Positions 4,500 to 30,916 of a DNA stretch of 31,623 nt are shown here, one piece after another; within the stretch, counting starts at the first letter, position 1; each line of letters starts with the position of its first letter. The stretch is taken from the UHGV virus genome UHGV-0098804, one strand, 5' to 3'. Origin of the DNA: a virus. The position numbers were made by a program, and so were the translations under genes. The notes under the pieces were generated by a model. The model saw only the letters and a program-made list of their open reading frames with translations, did no database searches and had not been told where the DNA came from.

Positions 4500-5255
4500 A
4501 TGAACAGAGCGGAATTAACAGCAAAAGCCGTCAGCCTGATTGAGTCAGCGACACCTATTAGTCGTAGTCTGGCACAAGCCAATGAGATCACGGAGGCTGC
4601 TTATCACCTGACTCGCGACCAAAAGCGACTGTTGTTTATTGTGGTGGGAAGACTTCGCTATGCTTCTAAGGATGGCGTTCTTGGTTCAGGTGCCTGTGAG
4701 TTGACGGTCAACGAATATGCAGAGATGTATAATTTGCCCTCTGCTGAAGCCAGCAAGGATATTCGTAAGGCCATTTCAGGGCTTAGCGAGAAGAAAGTTA
4801 CGATATATAACCCTGATGAATCGACCGAATCAGAAGACAGTTATGAGTCTTATCCCTGGATGATTAAGGATGCCTATTCACCACGGCGCGGGACTTACAT
4901 TATTCATCTTAATCCATATCTCATGCCGTTTTTTACTCTGCTTGATAAGAGATTCACAAGGCTGAATTTTACCGAAGTATCTCGCCTTACAAATCCTTAT
5001 TCTATGCGGCTTTATGAGTCCTTATGCCAGTACAGGAAGGATGATGGAAGCGGCTTTGCCATACTTGGCGTCGAATGGATGCGGGAGCGTTATGGGTTAC
5101 CAAAAAGCTATCAGCGGTATGCCGAATTTAAGAGAAGTTTTTTAACGAAGGCTGTAGCAGAGATTGAAAAAAATACAAAAATGAAAATAGTCTTCTCAGA
5201 GGTGACGGAAGGCGGCAAAGTTACCAGGATAAAATTTACCTATCAGCAGTCTTAA
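4500..5255 (+). CDS. repA: Iteron-binding replication initiator RepA (Rep_3-like), about 251 aa
   Basis: Track ORF 4467..5255; preferred start is the ATG at 4500 (MNRAELTAK...) because the first 11 codons fall inside the last iteron. N-terminal LIESA...LTRDQKRLLFIVVGRL resembles the Rep_3 initiator motif (recalled, not searched). Flanked by iterons on both sides. Confidence 0.8.
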   Translation: MNRAELTAKAVSLIESATPISRSLAQANEITEAAYHLTRDQKRLLFIVVGRLRYASKDGVLGSGACELTVNEYAEMYNLPSAEASKDIRKAISGLSEKKVTIYNPDESTESEDSYESYPWMIKDAYSPRRGTYIIHLNPYLMPFFTLLDKRFTRLNFTEVSRLTNPYSMRLYESLCQYRKDDGSGFAILGVEWMRERYGLPKSYQRYAEFKRSFLTKAVAEIEKNTKMKIVFSEVTEGGKVTRIKFTYQQS

Positions 5256-5546
5256 GGGCAATTTTTACACCCCTCTCAAGGTGTAGAATTTGCCCTTAAC
5301 GATCGGCAATTGAGGGCAATTTTTACATCTTGATTGCATGTATCTCGTTATTAGCAAGTTGTGTTTTTATATAACGTATTGATATGTAAGGATTATGTAA
5401 AAATCGCCCTCAACCAATATCGTGCGTATCGTGCATTCTTATTGCGCTTTTTTATTATCATTCACTGTGTTAACTGATTGATATTATTGAAATATGTAAA
5501 GAATGCCTTCATTGCTGATGGATTGATGATGTAAAAAATGCCCTCA
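5255..5546. repeat. Second iteron cluster downstream of repA (mixed orientation, partly degenerate) with an AT-rich stretch: candidate incompatibility/copy-control locus
   Basis: Iteron-like copies at about 5255-5272 (inverted), 5279-5298 (direct), 5312-5330 (inverted), 5393-5413, 5491-5510, 5528-5546 (degenerate direct); AT-rich 5340-5480. Confidence 0.6.
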
Positions 5547-5636
5547 ACATTGCGCTACCTTCCCTACCCGCTATCGTTGAGGTCGTGGGTGCTGACGGGA
5601 AATGAGCAACCCTCCAGCACACATAATTAAAGCTAT

Positions 5637-6344
5637 TCAGAATTTGATCACTCCACTCACAGCCCCCTTTAACGCGCTTGTAGCCATGCCAGCGGCACCG
5701 TTGACCAAAGCAGAAACACCTGAGCCTGCGGATGTGTATTTCTGGAAAGTGATTGGATATGACAAGAACTCTGACACCTGGTCTCGTGAGCGGGTGATTT
5801 CCCCAAGTTGAGTGGGGAATACGCGCATTTCCTCTTCCAGTTCTTTTCCGCCGTCCTGAGTTACCCGGTAGAGACGGATTTTCATCAGATATTCAGGAGG
5901 AAGGTTTATTGTTCCGTCCGGATTTGTTACGCGAGAACGACGTTCTTTGAACCAGTCCATGATCTTGCCATCTTCGGTATCCCTCACGGTCATAGTGACC
6001 GGTCCGACGCTAACATAGGTTGGCTTGCTGAATTCTACGCTGCCGATCACCTTGCTTTCTGTCTCGATGTTTCCACTGCTGTACGTGATATCCTTCACGA
6101 ACATATCGAAGCCGTTCAGGCCATCCACTTCAACTGTCCATTGCCATCCCTGGGCATAACGGATACGCATAGCGGCAGCAACAATATTTTTCCCGTAGGC
6201 AATATCGCTACTGTAATTCCCGCTTACCCCGCCGCCTGATATGGCTTTATCAAGAATGTCGCTAATGAGGTTGCTGGTGAATGATTTCGTGTTAAATGAC
6301 AATGCGGTGGTCAACGTTCTACCAACGCTGCTGAAAATACTCAC
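5637..6344 (-). CDS. Hypothetical phage structural protein (235 aa), GTG start
   Basis: Track ORF; GGAGG 7 nt upstream of the GTG at 6344; closely packed in the minus-strand structural operon. Confidence 0.5.
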   Translation of the reverse strand: MSIFSSVGRTLTTALSFNTKSFTSNLISDILDKAISGGGVSGNYSSDIAYGKNIVAAAMRIRYAQGWQWTVEVDGLNGFDMFVKDITYSSGNIETESKVIGSVEFSKPTYVSVGPVTMTVRDTEDGKIMDWFKERRSRVTNPDGTINLPPEYLMKIRLYRVTQDGGKELEEEMRVFPTQLGEITRSRDQVSEFLSYPITFQKYTSAGSGVSALVNGAAGMATSALKGAVSGVIKF

Positions 6345-6359
6345 TCTGCGCCTCCAGCG

Positions 6360-6920
6360 TTAAAAAATGGTAGCCCCCGGAATGATTGCCCGGTTTGAAG
6401 ACATTTTTTCCTCAATCTCCTGCACGCGGGCATATAGCGTTGCTTCATCGGGTAGATCGGAGTAGTCAAATTTTCCGTCGATGGACGCTCGCCGCTGCCG
6501 GGCGACATTTCTGACATTGATAAGCGCCTCCAGATACTCCTCCAGCATCCCAATGATCGCTGGCGGCACTTGCCATTCATCCAGCTTTCTGTCGCGTAGA
6601 TTAACCAGATACAGCATCCGAAAAGGCCAGCGTTCTGCACCTGTTAGCTCTAATTCAATAAAGCCGGATAATTCATCCGAATAGACCAGCAGGCCATTGT
6701 TGTCGGTAACATGGACCAGAGAGAGATAATCTTCTGGCAATGGGATTGCCGTGCCACCCTCTTTTTCAAGTTTTAATGTTTTCACTACCCCTGCCCTGTC
6801 CTGATACGTTGTCAGTGCTTTGATCAGGAAGGCTTTCAGCGTTTCTTCTTCACGCACAAGCAGTGGATTAAATCGTGCTTTAACGCTTTCTAATAATTCG
6901 GTTGGTGTCATCGTACCCAC
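6360..6920 (-). CDS. Hypothetical phage structural/assembly protein (186 aa)
   Basis: Track ORF; co-oriented and closely spaced with neighbours; start GTG 6920 or ATG 6911. Confidence 0.45.
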   Translation of the reverse strand: MGTMTPTELLESVKARFNPLLVREEETLKAFLIKALTTYQDRAGVVKTLKLEKEGGTAIPLPEDYLSLVHVTDNNGLLVYSDELSGFIELELTGAERWPFRMLYLVNLRDRKLDEWQVPPAIIGMLEEYLEALINVRNVARQRRASIDGKFDYSDLPDEATLYARVQEIEEKMSSNRAIIPGATIF

Positions 6921-6964
6921 AACTCAAATGCAAGGAGTTCCCGCCACAAGGGCGGGAGCGGGGA

Positions 6965-7456
6965 TTATTCTGCCCAGTTGTAAACAATGCGCAGGGAAGG
7001 CTTAACGACTGCCGTTACGTCTTCGGAGGAGAAGTCCACGGCGTCGGAATACACTTTGCAGTGAGAATATGTGCGGATCAGACCTTTATGGTTACCGCTA
7101 TTGGATTCAGCCGCTGCCTGTAAGGTAATTTCCAGATATTCTTTGCCGTATACCATTTGTTTTACAGCGGCGAGAACTGCGCCCTCGATAGTTTCCGCAC
7201 ATGTGACCTGAAATTCACCAGAGTTGCGTAATGGTCCGTGCTGGTTGAATTTCATGCCACCAGGAGCGTAATCTTCCACATCTTCGCGTGTCATTTCTGG
7301 TAACTGAGCAGTACGAACCAGTACAGACAGATGCTCATAACCTTTAATGGTCATCCAATATTCAGAGCCAATAAGTTTTTCGCCCGCAGCCAGGTTTTTA
7401 TTAAACCGGGATTTCAGAAAGGCCATATCGGCTTTTGTATTTGCAAAACCGGACAT
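6965..7456 (-). CDS. Candidate tail tube protein (163 aa)
   Basis: Track ORF; AGGAG SD before the ATG. Size and C-terminal ...IVYNWAE are reminiscent of T4 gp19-type tube proteins (weak, from memory); followed by an intercistronic hairpin at 6939-6957. Confidence 0.4.
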   Translation of the reverse strand: MSGFANTKADMAFLKSRFNKNLAAGEKLIGSEYWMTIKGYEHLSVLVRTAQLPEMTREDVEDYAPGGMKFNQHGPLRNSGEFQVTCAETIEGAVLAAVKQMVYGKEYLEITLQAAAESNSGNHKGLIRTYSHCKVYSDAVDFSSEDVTAVVKPSLRIVYNWAE

Positions 7457-7464
7457 AAATACTC

Positions 7465-8055
7465 CTACACAAAAACAGATGAGATATTGCTACGGTTAAT
7501 AGAGGTGTTTCCGCTGCATTGCAGGGTTACCGTGTTATGAGTGAAATAGCCTTCCGGTGTGCGCGGAGCGTCCAGTTGGTAACTCACGCTTTTGATAACG
7601 ACGTCGGTAAGGGCTATGTTTCTACCTATGTTTAACGTTACCGTCTCCGGGCGGCGACCGAATGGCGCTACATTGTTCAGTTCCGGCGATTCCATCTTCA
7701 GTAATGCTGTAATGGCTGCGTTCACTTCAAGTTGCGCGTTTACTGTCGCCATGAAGTCAATAACCAGATTAAATTCAGGCGGTTGCTGACCTTCCCAAAC
7801 AAGCATTGAGTTAAAGAGGGTCTTTGTTGTTACGCCGGTTGCGGTCTGAAGTGTATCAGCGAGAGAGCCAGCCGCTGCGCTAATACCGCCAAGCAAGCCC
7901 CCGACTGACTGGTTTTCAAATGGTGATTGCCACATTGAAGACAGTTCTGCGGTAGATCCTTCACCGATATAACCGACGACCATATCCTCAGGGGAGAGGA
8001 TATAAACCTTCATCAATGGACTTATTCCATCAGGCATTATCGCGCCGCAAATCAA
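7465..8055 (-). CDS. Hypothetical tail protein (196 aa), TTG start
   Basis: Track ORF; GGGAGG 8 nt upstream of the TTG at 8055. Confidence 0.45.
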   Translation of the reverse strand: MICGAIMPDGISPLMKVYILSPEDMVVGYIGEGSTAELSSMWQSPFENQSVGGLLGGISAAAGSLADTLQTATGVTTKTLFNSMLVWEGQQPPEFNLVIDFMATVNAQLEVNAAITALLKMESPELNNVAPFGRRPETVTLNIGRNIALTDVVIKSVSYQLDAPRTPEGYFTHNTVTLQCSGNTSINRSNISSVFV

Positions 8056-8104
8056 ACGCTATTCCTCCCAGATAGAGGCCACCTTTGCAGGTGGCCTGTG
8101 TCAC

Positions 8105-8836
8105 TTACAAACCGCGTTTTTTGCGAATGCGCATTGATTTTTTGCGGTTGATATTTGCTACGGATGTATGCGCTTTGCGGCGTGCTTTTTTCAGCGCCTG
8201 TTTTTGCAATGATGTCATGCGGCGAGGGCGCGGGCGCTTACGGATAATGGTAACCTTGCCATCACGGACCACTTTTTTACGTACCGCTTCCAGCATTGCG
8301 CTGTCACCACCAGCAACGGTGTAAATGGCAATAGCCGCTTCCATCATGTCGGCGTCGCTTTCGGAAAGCGCGTCATATACACGTTCGGCAGCAGAGTCAT
8401 CTTCATCGTCGATCATCTCGGTCACGTCGTCCTGGTCTGCGCCAAGCGCAACAGCAGCATCTGCAAGGGCTGCAAGAGCATCGTTATAAGCATCGACTTG
8501 TTCATCGGTAAAATCGGTGTCTTCATCGATATCAGCCAGGCCAGCCATAGTGATTGCTAACGCATCAAATGAGTCAGCTTCCGGATCGCCATCTTCAATC
8601 CAGCCTGCAAGCATGGAAGCCGCCAGGCTGCGCATATCTCCTTGTGCGCGAGACTCAACCGCTTCCATCATCGCGGTTTCAATATCTTCTTTTGGCTTTG
8701 TTTGAGTTTTCTGTTCGGCGCTTTCCAGCATGGCTTTATCATCATTTTCCGGCGTAGATTTATCACCGCTTTCAAAGCAGCCAGAACCAAAAATCGCACG
8801 CATAAAAGGATCAGCAGTATAATTTTTCATTTTCAA
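8105..8836 (-). CDS. Acidic protein with strongly basic C-terminal tail (243 aa): scaffold-like or DNA-binding virion protein
   Basis: Track ORF; Asp/Glu-rich body (DDEDDSAAE...) and Lys/Arg-rich C-terminus (RKRPRPRR...RKKRGL); purine-rich SD upstream. Confidence 0.45.
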   Translation of the reverse strand: MKMKNYTADPFMRAIFGSGCFESGDKSTPENDDKAMLESAEQKTQTKPKEDIETAMMEAVESRAQGDMRSLAASMLAGWIEDGDPEADSFDALAITMAGLADIDEDTDFTDEQVDAYNDALAALADAAVALGADQDDVTEMIDDEDDSAAERVYDALSESDADMMEAAIAIYTVAGGDSAMLEAVRKKVVRDGKVTIIRKRPRPRRMTSLQKQALKKARRKAHTSVANINRKKSMRIRKKRGL

Positions 8837-8871
8837 ACCTCTCTCCCCCGCATTTCTGCGGGGGTAATAAA

Positions 8872-10530
8872 TCAGCGCATCAGAATTGGTTTACCGACGA
8901 TTCGGCGAGCTGTACCGGTCGGGCAAACAGACCAGGACACTTCCCACAGATCGATGTCTTTCTGGACAACCTGGACAACATATGGATCTTCGCCCTGAGA
9001 CTTGTCACGGGGAGTAACCAGCGCACCGGATGCAACGTAACGGTCAAGCAATTCAGTCATTGCTTTCATCAGCGTCGCCTGGGTAATGCCATCCGGTTCA
9101 TGTTTAATCGCCAGTGCTACTTCATAGAAATTACGGGCAATAGCATTCATCAGAGACGAAACATGCTGGAATCGCAGGTAGTTGTTTTTACTGAAAGTTG
9201 TTAAAGAGTCGTCGATGTAGACAGAACCATCAGCAGCAACAGAAACTGGGTTAATGCGTGCGACAACGAATGCTTCGCGATCAACCGCACCGATATTTGG
9301 AATTCGGGCAATATTCTGTCGATCAATAATCGCGCGTGATATACCTGCCGGAGCGTAATGCCAGCCGCCAACATCCGATACCAGAGCCACCCCTCTTGCT
9401 TTTGCTACGAATGCATCGCAACTGATGCCGTAAACAACATTCATACCGGTGAAGGTATCTCGGCAGGAGAATGGGAAGTAGTAGCGGCTTGGCTGGTGTG
9501 AGCCACCAAAACTATGGCTTTTAGCTTCTGAAATGGCATTTTCTGGTGTCTGGTTGCCCTTCAGGTCGTAGAACATGTCTACACGAACGTCTTCTGCCAG
9601 ATTTTTGAGCGCGGCTAAGGCGGATGCGTCATAGCAGCCCAGTGACAGTAATGCGGTGTAATTAACCTCCGAGGCTTCGAGAACCTTTAATGCTTCCAGA
9701 TAGTCTTCGGTGTCAATGGTGGACAAATCGCCATCAGTGCCGCCTTCAAAAGCCACATCCTCAAACATGAGTTGAGCAGCAGATGCTTCCGCATTATCTG
9801 CCAGGACGGCACCAATGCGAGTGGACTGGCTTTCAAGCAGTGTCGGAATCCATGCTGGTTGGCCCATGTCGTTAGTGCCTTCTGGATTGAAGGACACCTG
9901 GTGGCTTTCCAGCACCTCAACAGACCCATCGGTTTGTTTTTCTTTCAGCGTCAGCGTAAAGAGTTCACTTTCTTCATCATCGCGAGTTAGTGATAACGTG
10001 CGATTTTGAGATGCATCACCATCTTTGATGAAGAATAATGCCTTCCCTTCGTCTTTAATCTGGGGAGTTTCTTTTGGTGTGAAAGTTACTGATTGTGTCG
10101 TTGCAGTTGAAGCAACACCCACGCTCAATGTGTCACCTGGATTTACTGTGGTTTCAGCAGGTTCCACGGTAAGTGTTTTGTTGGCCTTTGCCGCTTTTGC
10201 TCTGCTCGCGACGGAAACAGAAATTCCCGGCACCTTCATGTCTTTAGCGCAAACACGAACGACATAACCAGAGCCACCTTTTACGGCACGCTCCACGTGG
10301 CGGTATGGTTCAAATGCCGATCCCAGGCGAGGGTGAATAGGTGAACCTAATACGCTTTGATAAGTCGTATCGTCAACTTTCAGCACTTTACCCGGTGCGC
10401 AACGACGCGATATTACAAGCCCAGCAAAGACAGATGCGCCACCGCTGGTATTGGTGAGGGTAGCGTCAGCATTTACCGCCATTACAGCAACGCCAGCTGC
10501 CTGCCCTACCGAAAAACTAATCTTATTCAT
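8872..10530 (-). CDS. Major virion structural protein (552 aa): candidate tail sheath (or capsid)
   Basis: Long track ORF in the structural operon; assignment rests on size and context only, no confident sequence motif. Confidence 0.35.
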   Translation of the reverse strand: MNKISFSVGQAAGVAVMAVNADATLTNTSGGASVFAGLVISRRCAPGKVLKVDDTTYQSVLGSPIHPRLGSAFEPYRHVERAVKGGSGYVVRVCAKDMKVPGISVSVASRAKAAKANKTLTVEPAETTVNPGDTLSVGVASTATTQSVTFTPKETPQIKDEGKALFFIKDGDASQNRTLSLTRDDEESELFTLTLKEKQTDGSVEVLESHQVSFNPEGTNDMGQPAWIPTLLESQSTRIGAVLADNAEASAAQLMFEDVAFEGGTDGDLSTIDTEDYLEALKVLEASEVNYTALLSLGCYDASALAALKNLAEDVRVDMFYDLKGNQTPENAISEAKSHSFGGSHQPSRYYFPFSCRDTFTGMNVVYGISCDAFVAKARGVALVSDVGGWHYAPAGISRAIIDRQNIARIPNIGAVDREAFVVARINPVSVAADGSVYIDDSLTTFSKNNYLRFQHVSSLMNAIARNFYEVALAIKHEPDGITQATLMKAMTELLDRYVASGALVTPRDKSQGEDPYVVQVVQKDIDLWEVSWSVCPTGTARRIVGKPILMR

Positions 10531-10598
10531 GCTGTGTTCTTATCCTCTAAAGCGAGAGAACGAGGCAAGGCTACCCACGGTTAATGGGTAGCCTCTGA

Positions 10599-10877
10599 TC
10601 AGGATTCGCCTACCGTGAAGTTGTCGCCTACGGTTACTTCTTTCGTAGTCGGTTCAACACTGACGGCGCTTACGCTTTTAGGTGCCTCCCTAACAGTGAC
10701 CGTGCACTGTGCGGTTTTATTGCCGTCATTAGTTTTGATTGTCAGCACTGCCTGCCCTGCCTTAAGAGCGGTACATGTAGTGCCATCAACCTGGACAATT
10801 TCAGGGTGATCGGACTCAACAGTGAAAGATTTGTCTGTTGCGTCAGATGGCGTGATAGTTACTTGAATGTTTGCCAT
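10599..10877 (-). CDS. Small Ig-like (Big_2-type) domain protein (92 aa): candidate decoration protein
   Basis: Track ORF; AGGAG SD directly before the ATG. Thr/Val-rich beta-strand pattern (VTITPSDAT...FTVESDHPEIVQVD...LKAGQAVLTIKTNDGNKTAQCTVTV) typical of bacterial Ig-like domains. Confidence 0.5.
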   Translation of the reverse strand: MANIQVTITPSDATDKSFTVESDHPEIVQVDGTTCTALKAGQAVLTIKTNDGNKTAQCTVTVREAPKSVSAVSVEPTTKEVTVGDNFTVGES

Positions 10878-11023
10878 TTTTTCTCCTGAACGCCCCTTAA
10901 TCAGGGGCGTGTTTTTGCCTTACTTCTGCTTTGTTTTTTTCTGTGCCTTTGAAGTGTTCGCGGCGATAGTTTCACCTTCATCTACGTCAAGTGACGTTGG
11001 TGATACCGACACGTTCGCCACCA

Positions 11024-12721
11024 TCACTTTTTTTCGTTAACCTTGCCTGTCAGCATGTCGATAGCACCTTCTTTGGCACGAGTCAGACGCAGGCGGGCGA
11101 AATAATTCTCACCGTTGCGCGGGTGGACTTCGTTGATAGCACTACCCCAGAGAGTGGTGCGGTTAACGAGAGATGGATTGGTTTCGTGCACATACGGGAT
11201 TGCTGGGACCGCATCACCAGCGATCAGCCCGGCTTTACCGATGCCTTCACCGCGACCATAGAAATAAATGTCATCCAGACCTAAGTCATATCCCTGAGCC
11301 TTGAATTGCTCACACACAGGCTGCGGCACTTCGTAAATACGAATCGTGCCAAACAGGGTGCCGATGTACTGCACATACGGTGACTGAACGTAGCCCGGCG
11401 CGATTTGGAAGTGCTGTGGAGGCAGAGAACGCAGGAAGTTAGCTGCGTCACCACCTGCGAAGCCACCGCGAATACCTGTGGTCAGGGTGCGGTTTGCCAT
11501 TTCCTGAGACAGGGCGTTTACTGCGTGGCGCAGGAGGCCGACCCAGGACTCATAGTTTTGAGCTTCAGGCAGAGCCACATCAAATTCACGACCATAAACG
11601 GTATGGAATACCAGGGTGCGCAGACGCATGATGTCGGTTTCATGGGAGATCCAGTTCCGCATTGCGGAGAACTGAAGTGCCGCCAATTCAAGGCCGTGTT
11701 CACGGCTTAAATCGGAAGCGGACATTACGGTGTGTTCGGAAGCAATTACGTACTGAGACGGTCGAACTTCATACTTACGCATAGCCTGGTTGATTACCGG
11801 AATCAGGCTTGGATTGCGCTCGATGTTAATTTCGACCTGAACCGCAATTTCAGTCCCTTCTGCTGGCGCTTGAGTGAAGGTAATGTCGATGACACCAGTG
11901 TCATAAGCGACTTTTGCGGTAGCTGAGAATGCATTGCCTTTGCAGTCTTTATCATTGAAATAAAGGTTGCCATCGCCGTCGTCAACCTTGGACGGTTTGC
12001 GGTTGATAAGCAGCTTGTTATAACCAGCACGCAGCGGGCAGGACTGCCCCTCAAAATTTTGGATGTCGAACTGGAAAGTTTTGGTGCTACCGTCCCCTTT
12101 CGTGGAAAGGGTATACAGGCGCTTCATTTGAGAATAAACACCAGCGGACTGCATATTCAGTTCGTCACCTTGCTCGAAGGTGCCGAATTTTGTGCCTGCT
12201 ACGTTGACCAGTTCATAAATATTTGACTCATCACGATCACAAGGAACAAAAGTACAGGCATCACTGGTAGCAGCACCCAGAGAGGCAGGCAGAATTAGTG
12301 CAGCATATTGAGCAACTTTCATTACGCCGTCAGAGCTACGCATTGATTGCGCGACAGACTCAAACATTGCCTTGCCAGTGCCTACGTGTGTATCGCTGGC
12401 ACATTCAGTCATCAGGCGTTCAAGTGCCATGTGTGCGTTTGCCAGGATATCGCTTGCCGGGTAGTGACCATGCTGGCGCTTGTACTCATGCAGAGACATA
12501 GCCCACCCACCAGCGATCTGACGTGCAACCTCTGGATTTACGCCTTCAAACATAGCCTCCTTCTGGATAGCTTTATCCAGGTTCTCCATCATCGCTGCCT
12601 GATCAGCAATCATATTGCCCGCAGCATCGGTGGTCGGATCGACGGTCATAGCCATGACGCTTGCCGCCCGATTCATAATCTCGCGCTCGCGATCACGAGC
12701 TGGCTGAATGTTTTTATTCAC
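11024..12721 (-). CDS. Large virion protein (565 aa): candidate major capsid protein, GTG start
   Basis: Track ORF; first gene of the minus-strand structural run, followed by the Ig-like gene. Assignment by size and order only. Confidence 0.35.
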   Translation of the reverse strand: MNKNIQPARDREREIMNRAASVMAMTVDPTTDAAGNMIADQAAMMENLDKAIQKEAMFEGVNPEVARQIAGGWAMSLHEYKRQHGHYPASDILANAHMALERLMTECASDTHVGTGKAMFESVAQSMRSSDGVMKVAQYAALILPASLGAATSDACTFVPCDRDESNIYELVNVAGTKFGTFEQGDELNMQSAGVYSQMKRLYTLSTKGDGSTKTFQFDIQNFEGQSCPLRAGYNKLLINRKPSKVDDGDGNLYFNDKDCKGNAFSATAKVAYDTGVIDITFTQAPAEGTEIAVQVEINIERNPSLIPVINQAMRKYEVRPSQYVIASEHTVMSASDLSREHGLELAALQFSAMRNWISHETDIMRLRTLVFHTVYGREFDVALPEAQNYESWVGLLRHAVNALSQEMANRTLTTGIRGGFAGGDAANFLRSLPPQHFQIAPGYVQSPYVQYIGTLFGTIRIYEVPQPVCEQFKAQGYDLGLDDIYFYGRGEGIGKAGLIAGDAVPAIPYVHETNPSLVNRTTLWGSAINEVHPRNGENYFARLRLTRAKEGAIDMLTGKVNEKK

Positions 12722-12879
12722 GGTTAAGCCCTAAATTCGGGCGCGGCGTGAAGGTTCTTTTGACGCGCTAACAATACCAACTTTGTGATTTAGTCAATAG
12801 CATTAGTAAAATAAAATCTGTTAACACACGTGTTGTTATGTGGTTTAATTTTAATTTTCTAACACAAATCATTACGGTT

Positions 12880-13272
12880 ATGGCGTATCGGATCTTTGTT
12901 TCGTATAAAAATGGCGCGAAAAGCCACTCCCTGAACACAACGAGCCGCTTTCTTGTTGAGGCGCAACTGGCATCAATTCTTGCTGAAAGTGAGATACTCT
13001 CCCTCGCTGAACGAATCGTCATCCAGTTTTCTGGTAGAGATATTCTTAATGTCCCCGCCCTCACCCCGGCCTCCGAAGTCATGGAATCCATTAAATGGCC
13101 TGTATGTGGATGCCCGGCGAGAGTTGAAGAGCCGGTAACCGCTACGCTCTATATGCCGAAAGCAGTAAGAGACTGGCTTGCTGTGATTGGCAACGGGAAA
13201 GTCAGTGCTGGACTGCGAAAGTTAATTGAAATGGCAGATATTCCAGAGTTAAAAAACGCATGGCGACAATGA
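12880..13272 (+). CDS. Hypothetical protein (about 130 aa; track start 12838, ATG 12880 preferred)
   Basis: Track ORF 12838..13272; the first 14 codons lie in an AT-rich promoter-like region; stop overlaps the next ORF (ATGGCGACAATGA). Confidence 0.3.
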   Translation: MAYRIFVSYKNGAKSHSLNTTSRFLVEAQLASILAESEILSLAERIVIQFSGRDILNVPALTPASEVMESIKWPVCGCPARVEEPVTATLYMPKAVRDWLAVIGNGKVSAGLRKLIEMADIPELKNAWRQ

Positions 13273-17103: not shown

Positions 17104-17149
17104 CAGCGAATGCGTTCTTGAAAGGCTGCAAATTGCAGCCTTTTTTGTA

Positions 17150-18299: not shown

Positions 18300-18420
18300 T
18301 ACCGATTTGATGCCTTATTGGCGTCTATCGTGTACCAGTGCAATAATGGTGTCAAAGTGGCGCCATAATGGTGTTAATATACAGCCATATTGATATCAAA
18401 TTGACACTGTATCGGCATCA

Positions 18421-18446
18421 AAAAGCCCCAGGCGGGGCTTTTTCTA
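18421..18446. terminator. Bidirectional rho-independent terminator between the par operon and the dam operon
   Basis: aaaaagcccc aggc ggggcttttt: GC stem flanked by an A-run and a T-run; overlaps the dam stop codon. Confidence 0.6.
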
Positions 18447-25034: not shown

Positions 25035-25055
25035 TATAGTAAAATACATACAAAA

Positions 25056-25084
25056 AGCCCACTTAGCAAGTGGGCTTTCCTTTG
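25056..25084 (+). terminator. Rho-independent terminator after higA
   Basis: agcccactt agc aagtgggct followed by ttcctttg. Confidence 0.55.
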
Positions 25085-30857: not shown

Positions 30858-30916
30858 CGTGCGGATAATCCGATTATTTGGCAGTTAAATCCCCGGCGTC
30901 GCCGGGGATGCAGCAT

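Follow-up and report, generated by a model that had tools for sequence, protein, structure and literature searches.

The virus genome UHGV-0098804, analysed here as one strand of 31,623 nucleotides (nt; the window), raises the question of what stable hairpins do between the genes of a capsid and tail operon: do they end transcription, or do they act within the messenger RNA (mRNA)? By sequence comparison, the window is a D6-like, P1-family Escherichia coli phage-plasmid, with positions 6700-11200 showing 93% identity to Escherichia phage D6, a plasmid prophage related to P1, and 99.6% identity to an E. coli plasmid. A preliminary description of the window had listed inverted repeats in five intergenic gaps of this operon, most of them said to lack a following T-run, and had taken them for mRNA processing or stability elements, or for partial attenuators, rather than for full terminators.

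Five hairpins fill the long gaps of a late operon

Each of the five inverted repeats was confirmed on the minus (coding) strand, within an intercistronic gap (hairpins hp1 to hp5; Table 1). Four lie where they had been placed, and hp3 had been misplaced by 3 nt (8845-8864, not 8848-8867). Their predicted folding energies, -12.7 to -18.4 kcal/mol, are far beyond chance: no shuffle out of 500 matched the observed hairpin energy in four of the gaps, 6/500 did so for hp1, and whole-gap folds of the hairpin gaps gave z-scores of -2.3 to -4.2. Over the entire window, we counted 19 perfect GC-rich stems of at least 7 base pairs (bp), compared with 4.5 +/- 2.0 in dinucleotide shuffles. The remark that most of the hairpins lack a T-run can be made stronger, since none of the five (0/5) carries one on the coding strand.

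Together, the five hairpins occupy all five operon gaps of at least 40 nt. The three junctions free of hairpins are the overlap of gene 23 with orf50, the 8-nt gap between pmgG and bplB, and the 15-nt gap between pmgC and tub. A promoter scan found no sigma-70-like promoter on the minus strand between 5.6 and 12.7 kb; late transcription of the P1 type is driven by the Lpa activator.

Substitutions preserve pairing on the sense strand

RNAalifold independently recovered hp4 and hp2. At hp4, 96 of 96 alignment cells pair (100%), double changes occur at three pairs, and five pair types (GC, AU, CG, UA and UG) are seen at one position; its covariation score was reached in 0/500 shuffles, and controls in which the partner was slid fell to 39-52% paired. 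At hp2, pairing holds in 94% of cells, the U-A that closes the loop is swapped to A-U with the GCAA loop kept, and again none of 500 shuffles reached the covariation score, with the slid controls for hp2 and hp4 spanning 22-53% paired. Because MAFFT misaligned the 3' arms of hp1 and hp3 across clades, these two were assessed by per-sequence stems in place of pair counts, showing that each lineage bears its own perfect stem; hp1 also shows a compensatory C-G to U-A change in the Shigella/HX138 plasmids. Covariation, whose lack the preliminary description would have held against the stems, is thus present as compensatory changes in hp1, hp2 and hp4.

The same comparisons separate the two strands. 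Internal non-Watson-Crick pairs on the mRNA strand are G·U in nine cases and A·C in none, a tally made by eye from printed pair strings that required at least two Watson-Crick pairs on each side. A looser, scripted count gave 18 G·U versus 6 A·C, with five of the six A·C pairs lying beside the outermost pair and the sixth two pairs in. Among 70 distinct hairpins, the sense fold is the more stable one in 51 and the less stable one in 11 (Wilcoxon p = 7e-8), and GNRA or UNCG tetraloops number 13 on the sense strand versus 1 on the antisense strand. These strand counts are drawn from many separate lineages and junctions and are not phylogenetically independent. Because G·U pairs, fold stability and tetraloops all favour the sense strand, a purely DNA-level palindrome and an antisense function are excluded; judged by these substitution patterns, selection acts on the hairpins as coding-strand RNA.

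Hairpins keep their junctions across the P1 family

To see how the junctions vary, we compared the operon of the window with D6, four plasmids at 80-90% identity, P1, 6 genome contigs and 56 IMG/VR contigs, a survey of ~70 related loci that spans sheath identities from 42% to 98% and contains 156 distinct junction sequences; folds of -10 kcal/mol or stronger were called as hairpins. Gap sizes are bimodal, with 42 junctions of at most 20 nt, 114 of at least 35 nt and none between 21 and 34 nt. None of the 42 short gaps contains a hairpin, compared with 105 of the 114 long ones. In 11 representative loci, hairpins were found in 37/41 long gaps versus 3.6% of 1031 coding windows of 60 nt.

It is the position of the hairpins that is kept across the P1 family. 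No lineage lacks the hairpin behind the capsid gene or the one behind gene 21: both recur as far out as 42% sheath identity and in P1, with sequences unrelated between lineages; those of P1 read GCGCCCC-CGUGC-GGGGCGC (post-capsid) and GGAGGCCGGG-GAAC-UCCGGCCUUU (post-gene 21). The hairpins after the immunoglobulin (Ig)-like gene and after the sheath gene are confined to lineages possessing the Ig gene. The post-bplB hairpin is found in P1 as well as in the D6-like, 80% and L057 lineages; in P1 it consists of a UUCG-loop stem followed by UUU, and a Citrobacter-like clade has a hairpin after pmgC instead of bplB. At the hp5 junction, the D6-like and 80% clades share one unchanged stem with varying loop and flanks, and unrelated hairpins stand there in L057, L034, P1 and others. 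At the hp3 junction, the perfect stems differ by lineage (CCCCGCC/GGCGGGG, UCCCCGC/GCGGGGA, GCCGCCC/GGGCGGC), and L026 and L057 carry different stems at the hp1 junction. In some lineages a run of 4-6 U's trails the stem at these junctions, as it does behind gene 21 in L051 and behind the capsid gene in L052; UUCG loops occur in P1, L052 and L054.

The hairpins are placed with respect to the stop codon. Those of the window begin 4-9 nt past the upstream stop, and in the survey the stop-to-stem distance has a median of 7 nt (interquartile range 6-8), compared with a stem-to-start distance of 7 to 39 nt. Because the former is tight and the latter variable, the element is tied to where the upstream cistron ends.

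Similar hairpins are found outside the late operon. A sixth one of the same U-less type lies 7 nt past the stop of an Ant-like gene, ahead of a pmgF-like gene, and has an equivalent in D6; P1 pmgF likewise has a hairpin ahead of it, the one after bplB. A census of the complete D6 record returned further stop-proximal U-less hairpins after gene 16, ddrA, darB and the second ant gene; in D6 the baseplate genes follow one another without gaps. Neither the D6 nor the P1 record annotates a regulatory feature at the hairpin sites. As a separate observation, the pmgC-tub gap of L054, a distant relative, is 158 nt long and holds a tandem ATTGTACG-type repeat rather than the usual hairpin.

The hairpins are not canonical intrinsic terminators

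All five hairpins have the GC-rich stem-loop of an intrinsic terminator; the U-tract is missing. We scored both features with a d'Aubenton-Carafa-type T-tract score and d-score, the formula being used for comparison within the window only. On the coding strand, the five hairpins have T-scores of 0.06-1.10 and d-scores of -25 to -43. Three bidirectional terminators of the window, which served as internal positive controls (Table 1), reach T-tract scores of 3.97-4.09 and d-scores of +13 to +20 on their better strand, with stems weaker than those of the hairpins (-9.2 to -11.4 kcal/mol). A consensus terminator scan called 0/5 hairpins on the minus strand, and hp5 was called on the plus strand only.

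Neither does any of the hairpins close a transcription unit, as inferred from the gene arrangement: a structural gene follows each time, and the 14-37 nt that separate a stem from the next start contain a Shine-Dalgarno sequence and are too short for a promoter. Because the U-tract is missing and structural genes lie downstream without room for a promoter, the hairpins are not full terminators, and they are not canonical intrinsic terminators. The homologues in P1 of genes 23, 22, 21, pmgG and bplB are all essential (PMC10695390). The part of the earlier proposal that denies full termination is supported by the missing U-tract and by the position of the sheath and tube genes downstream, and its view of the hairpins as more like RNA elements by the selection on sense RNA; how such elements would act is weighed below.

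Other established classes fit less well. Repetitive extragenic palindromes (REPs) and bacterial interspersed mosaic elements share a common consensus, and the five sequences here have no such relation to each other. A search of positions 5000-13200 against Rfam returned no family, the sole sub-threshold match being an archaeal small nucleolar RNA model. RNase III sites of the T7 type are duplexes of at least ~20 bp that often contain an internal loop, and the stems here have 7-12 bp. The late-promoter (Lpa) box of P1, a 9-bp inverted repeat AAGTNACTT with a -10 hexamer (in promoter LP23, AAGTGACTT-N4-TAAAAT), is absent from the hairpin gaps. Upstream of gene 23 lies a ACACGTGT palindrome, which was set aside because it does not recur. 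What the hairpins do share with stabilisers and 3' barriers is a stable intercistronic stem-loop that is selected as sense RNA.

A reading as mRNA boundary elements and its rivals

We lean, with modest confidence, towards reading the hairpins as sense-strand boundary or stabiliser elements of the mRNA, which would halt 3' exonucleases and be at most weakly terminating. According to this model, the late polycistronic mRNA would form a stem-loop a few nt 3' of a stop codon, and RNA 3' ends would arise downstream of it through endonucleolytic cleavage or through occasional Rho-dependent or hairpin-induced termination. The 3'-to-5' exonucleases would be halted at the stem, leaving the upstream segments (capsid, Ig decoration protein, sheath, gene 21 and pmgG-tube) to outlast the distal RNA, and pmgC and tub would still be covered by full-length transcription. 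It is the exonuclease-barrier action, together with any effect on protein ratios, that we infer here.

Published RNA sequencing of P1 infection offers a view of the homologous transcript, in the form of log fold-changes against uninfected cells that are not length-normalised and support at most an absence of strong termination. At 30 min, the values are 12.07 for gene 23, 11.45 for 22, 11.12 for 21, 10.62 for pmgG, 10.86 for bplB and 8.91 for pmgF (PMC8201110 supplement). Over the two U-less hairpins of P1, which stand at equivalent positions, the signal falls by ~2.3-fold at most in total, or not at all after length adjustment, and the drop to pmgF across the post-bplB hairpin, with its UUCG loop and U's, is 2-4-fold (PMC8201110 supplement). 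A drop of at most 2.3-fold across two hairpins argues against strong attenuation.

Three observations weigh against the boundary-element reading. The P1 fold-changes step down little and, once length-adjusted, are flat from gene 23 to bplB, so any differential-stability effect may be small. The canonical terminators of D6 can lie equally near to stop codons (3-6 nt), so the 7-nt spacing may reflect only genome compaction. Finally, the junction hairpins of some lineages (L051, L052) carry 4-6 U's behind the stem, which makes co-transcriptional termination plausible there.

The main rival takes the hairpins for leaky co-transcriptional terminators or pause sites (attenuators) that give a 5'-to-3' gradient of transcription, like the weak T_J, T_F and T_G of phiX174, whose terminators pass 0.59-0.80 of transcription (bioRxiv 10.1101/2020.03.05.979765). 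The GC-rich, terminator-like stems, the U-runs that trail them at the same junctions in several related lineages, and the lower pmgF signal behind the post-bplB hairpin of P1 all speak for such a gradient; set against them are the missing U-tracts and strongly negative d-scores of the window hairpins, the small drop across the U-less hairpins of P1, and the sheath and tube genes that lie downstream, and on balance we hold leaky termination to be unlikely. A quite unlikely alternative to boundary elements, in our judgement, is a ribosome-gauged junction device, in which the hairpin would sit unmelted at the mRNA entrance of the terminating ribosome, shield the RNA behind the last ribosome from Rho and exonucleases, block sliding of ribosomes after termination and so uncouple translation of adjacent cistrons, making up a binary junction code of the P1 family. 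In such a code, an overlap or a gap of at most 15 nt may mean coupled cistrons and a hairpin spacer insulated ones, and each lineage may have rewritten it along with the composition of its virion, as where hairpins appear alongside the Ig gene. By its footprint, a ribosome on a stop codon has a stem ~7 nt past that codon at its mRNA entrance. On the same geometry rests the proposal that the hairpins are translational insulators, the stem blocking sliding and re-initiation by 70S or 30S ribosomes; flanking cistrons would be translated independently, and junctions that are hairpin-free (overlap or at most 15 nt) would stay coupled. The strictly bimodal junction architecture, the stop-to-stem spacing centred on 7 nt and the separate Shine-Dalgarno sequence downstream at each hairpin junction are as insulation would have them, but true D6 terminators have the same spacing, independent initiation can be explained without hairpins, and we know of no established natural precedent for insulator hairpins; we consider this proposal improbable.

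Less probable again is protection from the 5' side, in which cleavage between stop and stem would leave the hairpin at a new 5' end, shielding the downstream cistron from RNase E. Hairpins 14-37 nt ahead of the next start do have the typical geometry of a 5' untranslated region, but it is the distance to the upstream stop that is tight and the distance to the downstream start that is variable, and a cleavage site would have just 4-9 nt to lie in. Action at the DNA level, be it as protein-binding palindromes (such as sites for the late activator), as antisense terminators or as homology patches at the boundaries of recombining modules, is disfavoured and the least credible of these proposals. 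It can draw on hp5, which has a T-run on the plus strand and is the top match of the terminator scan, on the mosaic of pmgG alleles beside hp2, and on the 9-bp inverted repeat of P1 late promoters (PMC10695390). However, the G·U pairs and tetraloops are sense-only, all five sequences differ and none of them matches the AAGTNACTT box of P1 or carries a -10 element, and the plus-strand T-run at hp5 stems from an A-run that is deleted in the 80% clade.

Relation to known hairpins

Hairpins that stabilise mRNA between cistrons are familiar from the Rhodobacter puf operon and from the REP elements of malE-malF. REPs are a repeated sequence family, which sets them apart from the five window hairpins. 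In phage T4, Tuerk et al. reportedly described in 1988 intercistronic hairpins with C(UUCG)G and related hyper-stable tetraloops. Very stable tetraloop hairpins between cistrons are found here as well (GCAA in hp2, GAAA in hp3, UUCG in P1, L052 and L054); however, T4 belongs to another phage family, and just some of the P1-family hairpins bear such loops. The T_J, T_F, T_G and T_H elements of phiX174 likewise form a series of leaky hairpins between phage structural genes, giving nested mRNAs, but they are Rho-independent terminators with measurable termination, unlike the five of the window, which are without U-tracts. In E. coli, galE mRNA has its 3' end set by a hairpin with an 8-bp stem and a 4-nt loop that blocks exonucleases (PMC11925234). 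As in the window, this is a short GC-rich stem-loop on the sense strand of a polycistronic mRNA, without a U-tract. The galE hairpin creates polarity and lies inside galT, whereas here five unrelated sequences stand in one operon, 4-9 nt past stop codons, with a predicted role.

The hairpins therefore fit a long-known class, the intercistronic stabiliser or attenuator stem-loops of phage and bacterial operons, and that class is itself ordinary; new are its documentation for the P1/D6 family and the family-wide pattern of junctions. P1 has no proven antiterminator (PMC10695390). If the hairpins shape the stability of mRNA segments, a P1-type phage without lambda-style antitermination would tune the output of a single late transcript, which encodes proteins required in very different copy numbers. 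The ~70 sequence-unrelated hairpins at shared junctions, with a U-tract in some lineages only, also provide a natural set for barrier tests. As P1/D6-type phage-plasmids serve as vectors and spread resistance genes, their annotation gains from correct operon models and start sites.

Table 1. Hairpins, terminators and late-operon genes of the window. Operon genes were named from the list of open reading frames (ORFs), the D6 annotation and PHROG/Pfam matches.
Feature	Position	Strand	Stem-loop	Stem (bp)	Energy (kcal/mol)	Placement and remarks
hp1	6939-6957	minus	UCCCGCC-CUUGU-GGCGGGA	7	-12.7	7 nt past bplB stop; 27 nt ahead of pmgC start
hp2	8076-8097	minus	AGGCCACCU-GCAA-AGGUGGCCU	9	-17.2	GNRA loop; 7 nt past gene 21 stop; 20 nt ahead of pmgG TTG start
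hp3	8845-8864	minus	CCCCCGCA-GAAA-UGCGGGGG	8	-16.7	GNRA loop; 7 nt past sheath stop; 14 nt ahead of gene 21 start
hp4	10568-10594	minus	AGGCUACCCA-UUAACCG-UGGGUAGCCU	10	-18.4	4 nt past Ig stop; 37 nt ahead of sheath start
hp5	10890-10910	minus	ACGCCCCU-GAUUA-AGGGGCGU	8	-15.3	gap-fold z -3.7; 9 nt past orf50 stop; 14 nt ahead of Ig start
Sixth hairpin	30889-30909	minus	AUCCCCGGC-GAC-GCCGGGGAU	9	-16.6	same U-less type; T-score 1.69
Canonical bidirectional terminators	17121-17143, 18420-18443, 25054-25078					A-run, stem, T-run; ends of partition, rdgC and toxin-antitoxin units
Late operon with hairpins	5637-12721	minus				order 23-orf50-Ig-22-21-pmgG-bplB-pmgC-tub
Gene 23	11024-12721	minus				major capsid
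orf50	10920-11024	minus				D6 annotation: separate hypothetical protein
Ig-like protein gene	10599-10877	minus
Gene 22	8872-10530	minus				sheath
Gene 21	8105-8830	minus
pmgG	7465-8055	minus				TTG start
bplB	6965-7456	minus				PHROG 'tail tube'
pmgC	6360-6911	minus
tub	5637-6344	minus

A candidate frameshift at the capsid gene end and the Ig protein

The 3' end of the major capsid gene holds a candidate programmed -1 frameshift (11024-11035, minus). Gene 23 ends in GAA AAA AAG TGA, which includes a dnaX-type -1 slippery heptamer, A_AAA_AAG (11033-11027, minus), and the -1 frame past the heptamer leads directly into orf50 (35 codons). Both heptamer and open -1 frame are kept in three groups, the D6-like clade, the 80% clade and L057. 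In the 80% clade orf50 has no ATG, and in L057 the heptamer stands two codons ahead of the stop and the -1 ORF is without any canonical start codon. A consensus RNA structure is predicted from 5 nt downstream of the heptamer. Stop-codon read-through as a means of joining orf50 to the Ig protein was rejected, since the two are in frame in some variants only and others have extra stops.

The 35 residues that the -1 frame would add (VMVANVSVSPTSLDVDEGETIAANTS...) are similar to the opening strands of a Big_2 Ig domain. The match of the Ig protein to Pfam Big_2 starts only at profile position 22, so that its first strand is lacking, and the orf50 peptide looks like this missing strand. At its C-terminus, the Ig protein has another dangling first-strand peptide in every lineage, down to 43% identity. 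We modelled the window's orf50-TAA-Ig reading with AlphaFold, the TAA being read as Q, which makes an artificial cis arrangement with a shallow alignment. In this model (mean predicted local distance difference test score 72.7), the orf50 peptide forms three strands and completes the Ig fold, and Ig residues 3-9 form a strand that is not present in the model of the Ig protein alone. Foldseek comparison with Big_2 domains aligned 118-122 columns for the orf50-Ig fusion and 58-61 for Ig alone, and the template modelling score to the Ig domain of lambda gpV was 0.67 for the fusion and 0.49 for Ig alone. The models suggest that a frameshifted capsid tail may donate the missing strand to the Ig decoration protein, and such strand donation may anchor or chain the decoration protein on the capsid.

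Spacer helices and the pmgG gene

Downstream of hp4, towards the sheath start (10531-10565, minus), a second weak helix (GUUCUCU/AGAGGAU) pairs with the sheath Shine-Dalgarno sequence; of its pairs, just 3 survive across clades in RNAalifold. The spacer is rich in pyrimidines and poor in G. Around hp1, the window fold shows an outer helix that would sequester the ribosome-binding site of pmgC; this was dropped, as by eye it is not kept in the L004 and L007 spacers.

The start of pmgG is probably the TTG at 8055 rather than the ATG of the D6 annotation (8037-8055, minus). The six codons between TTG and ATG vary mainly at third positions across clades, the upstream start site reads ATG in L057, and a GGGAGG Shine-Dalgarno sequence lies 7 nt ahead of it. 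The gene is also mosaic: pmgG has 74-76% identity to the window in L005, L007, L021 and L032, compared with 94-100% for their flanking genes, which indicates a recombinational allele swap with bounds roughly at hp2 and the bplB start.

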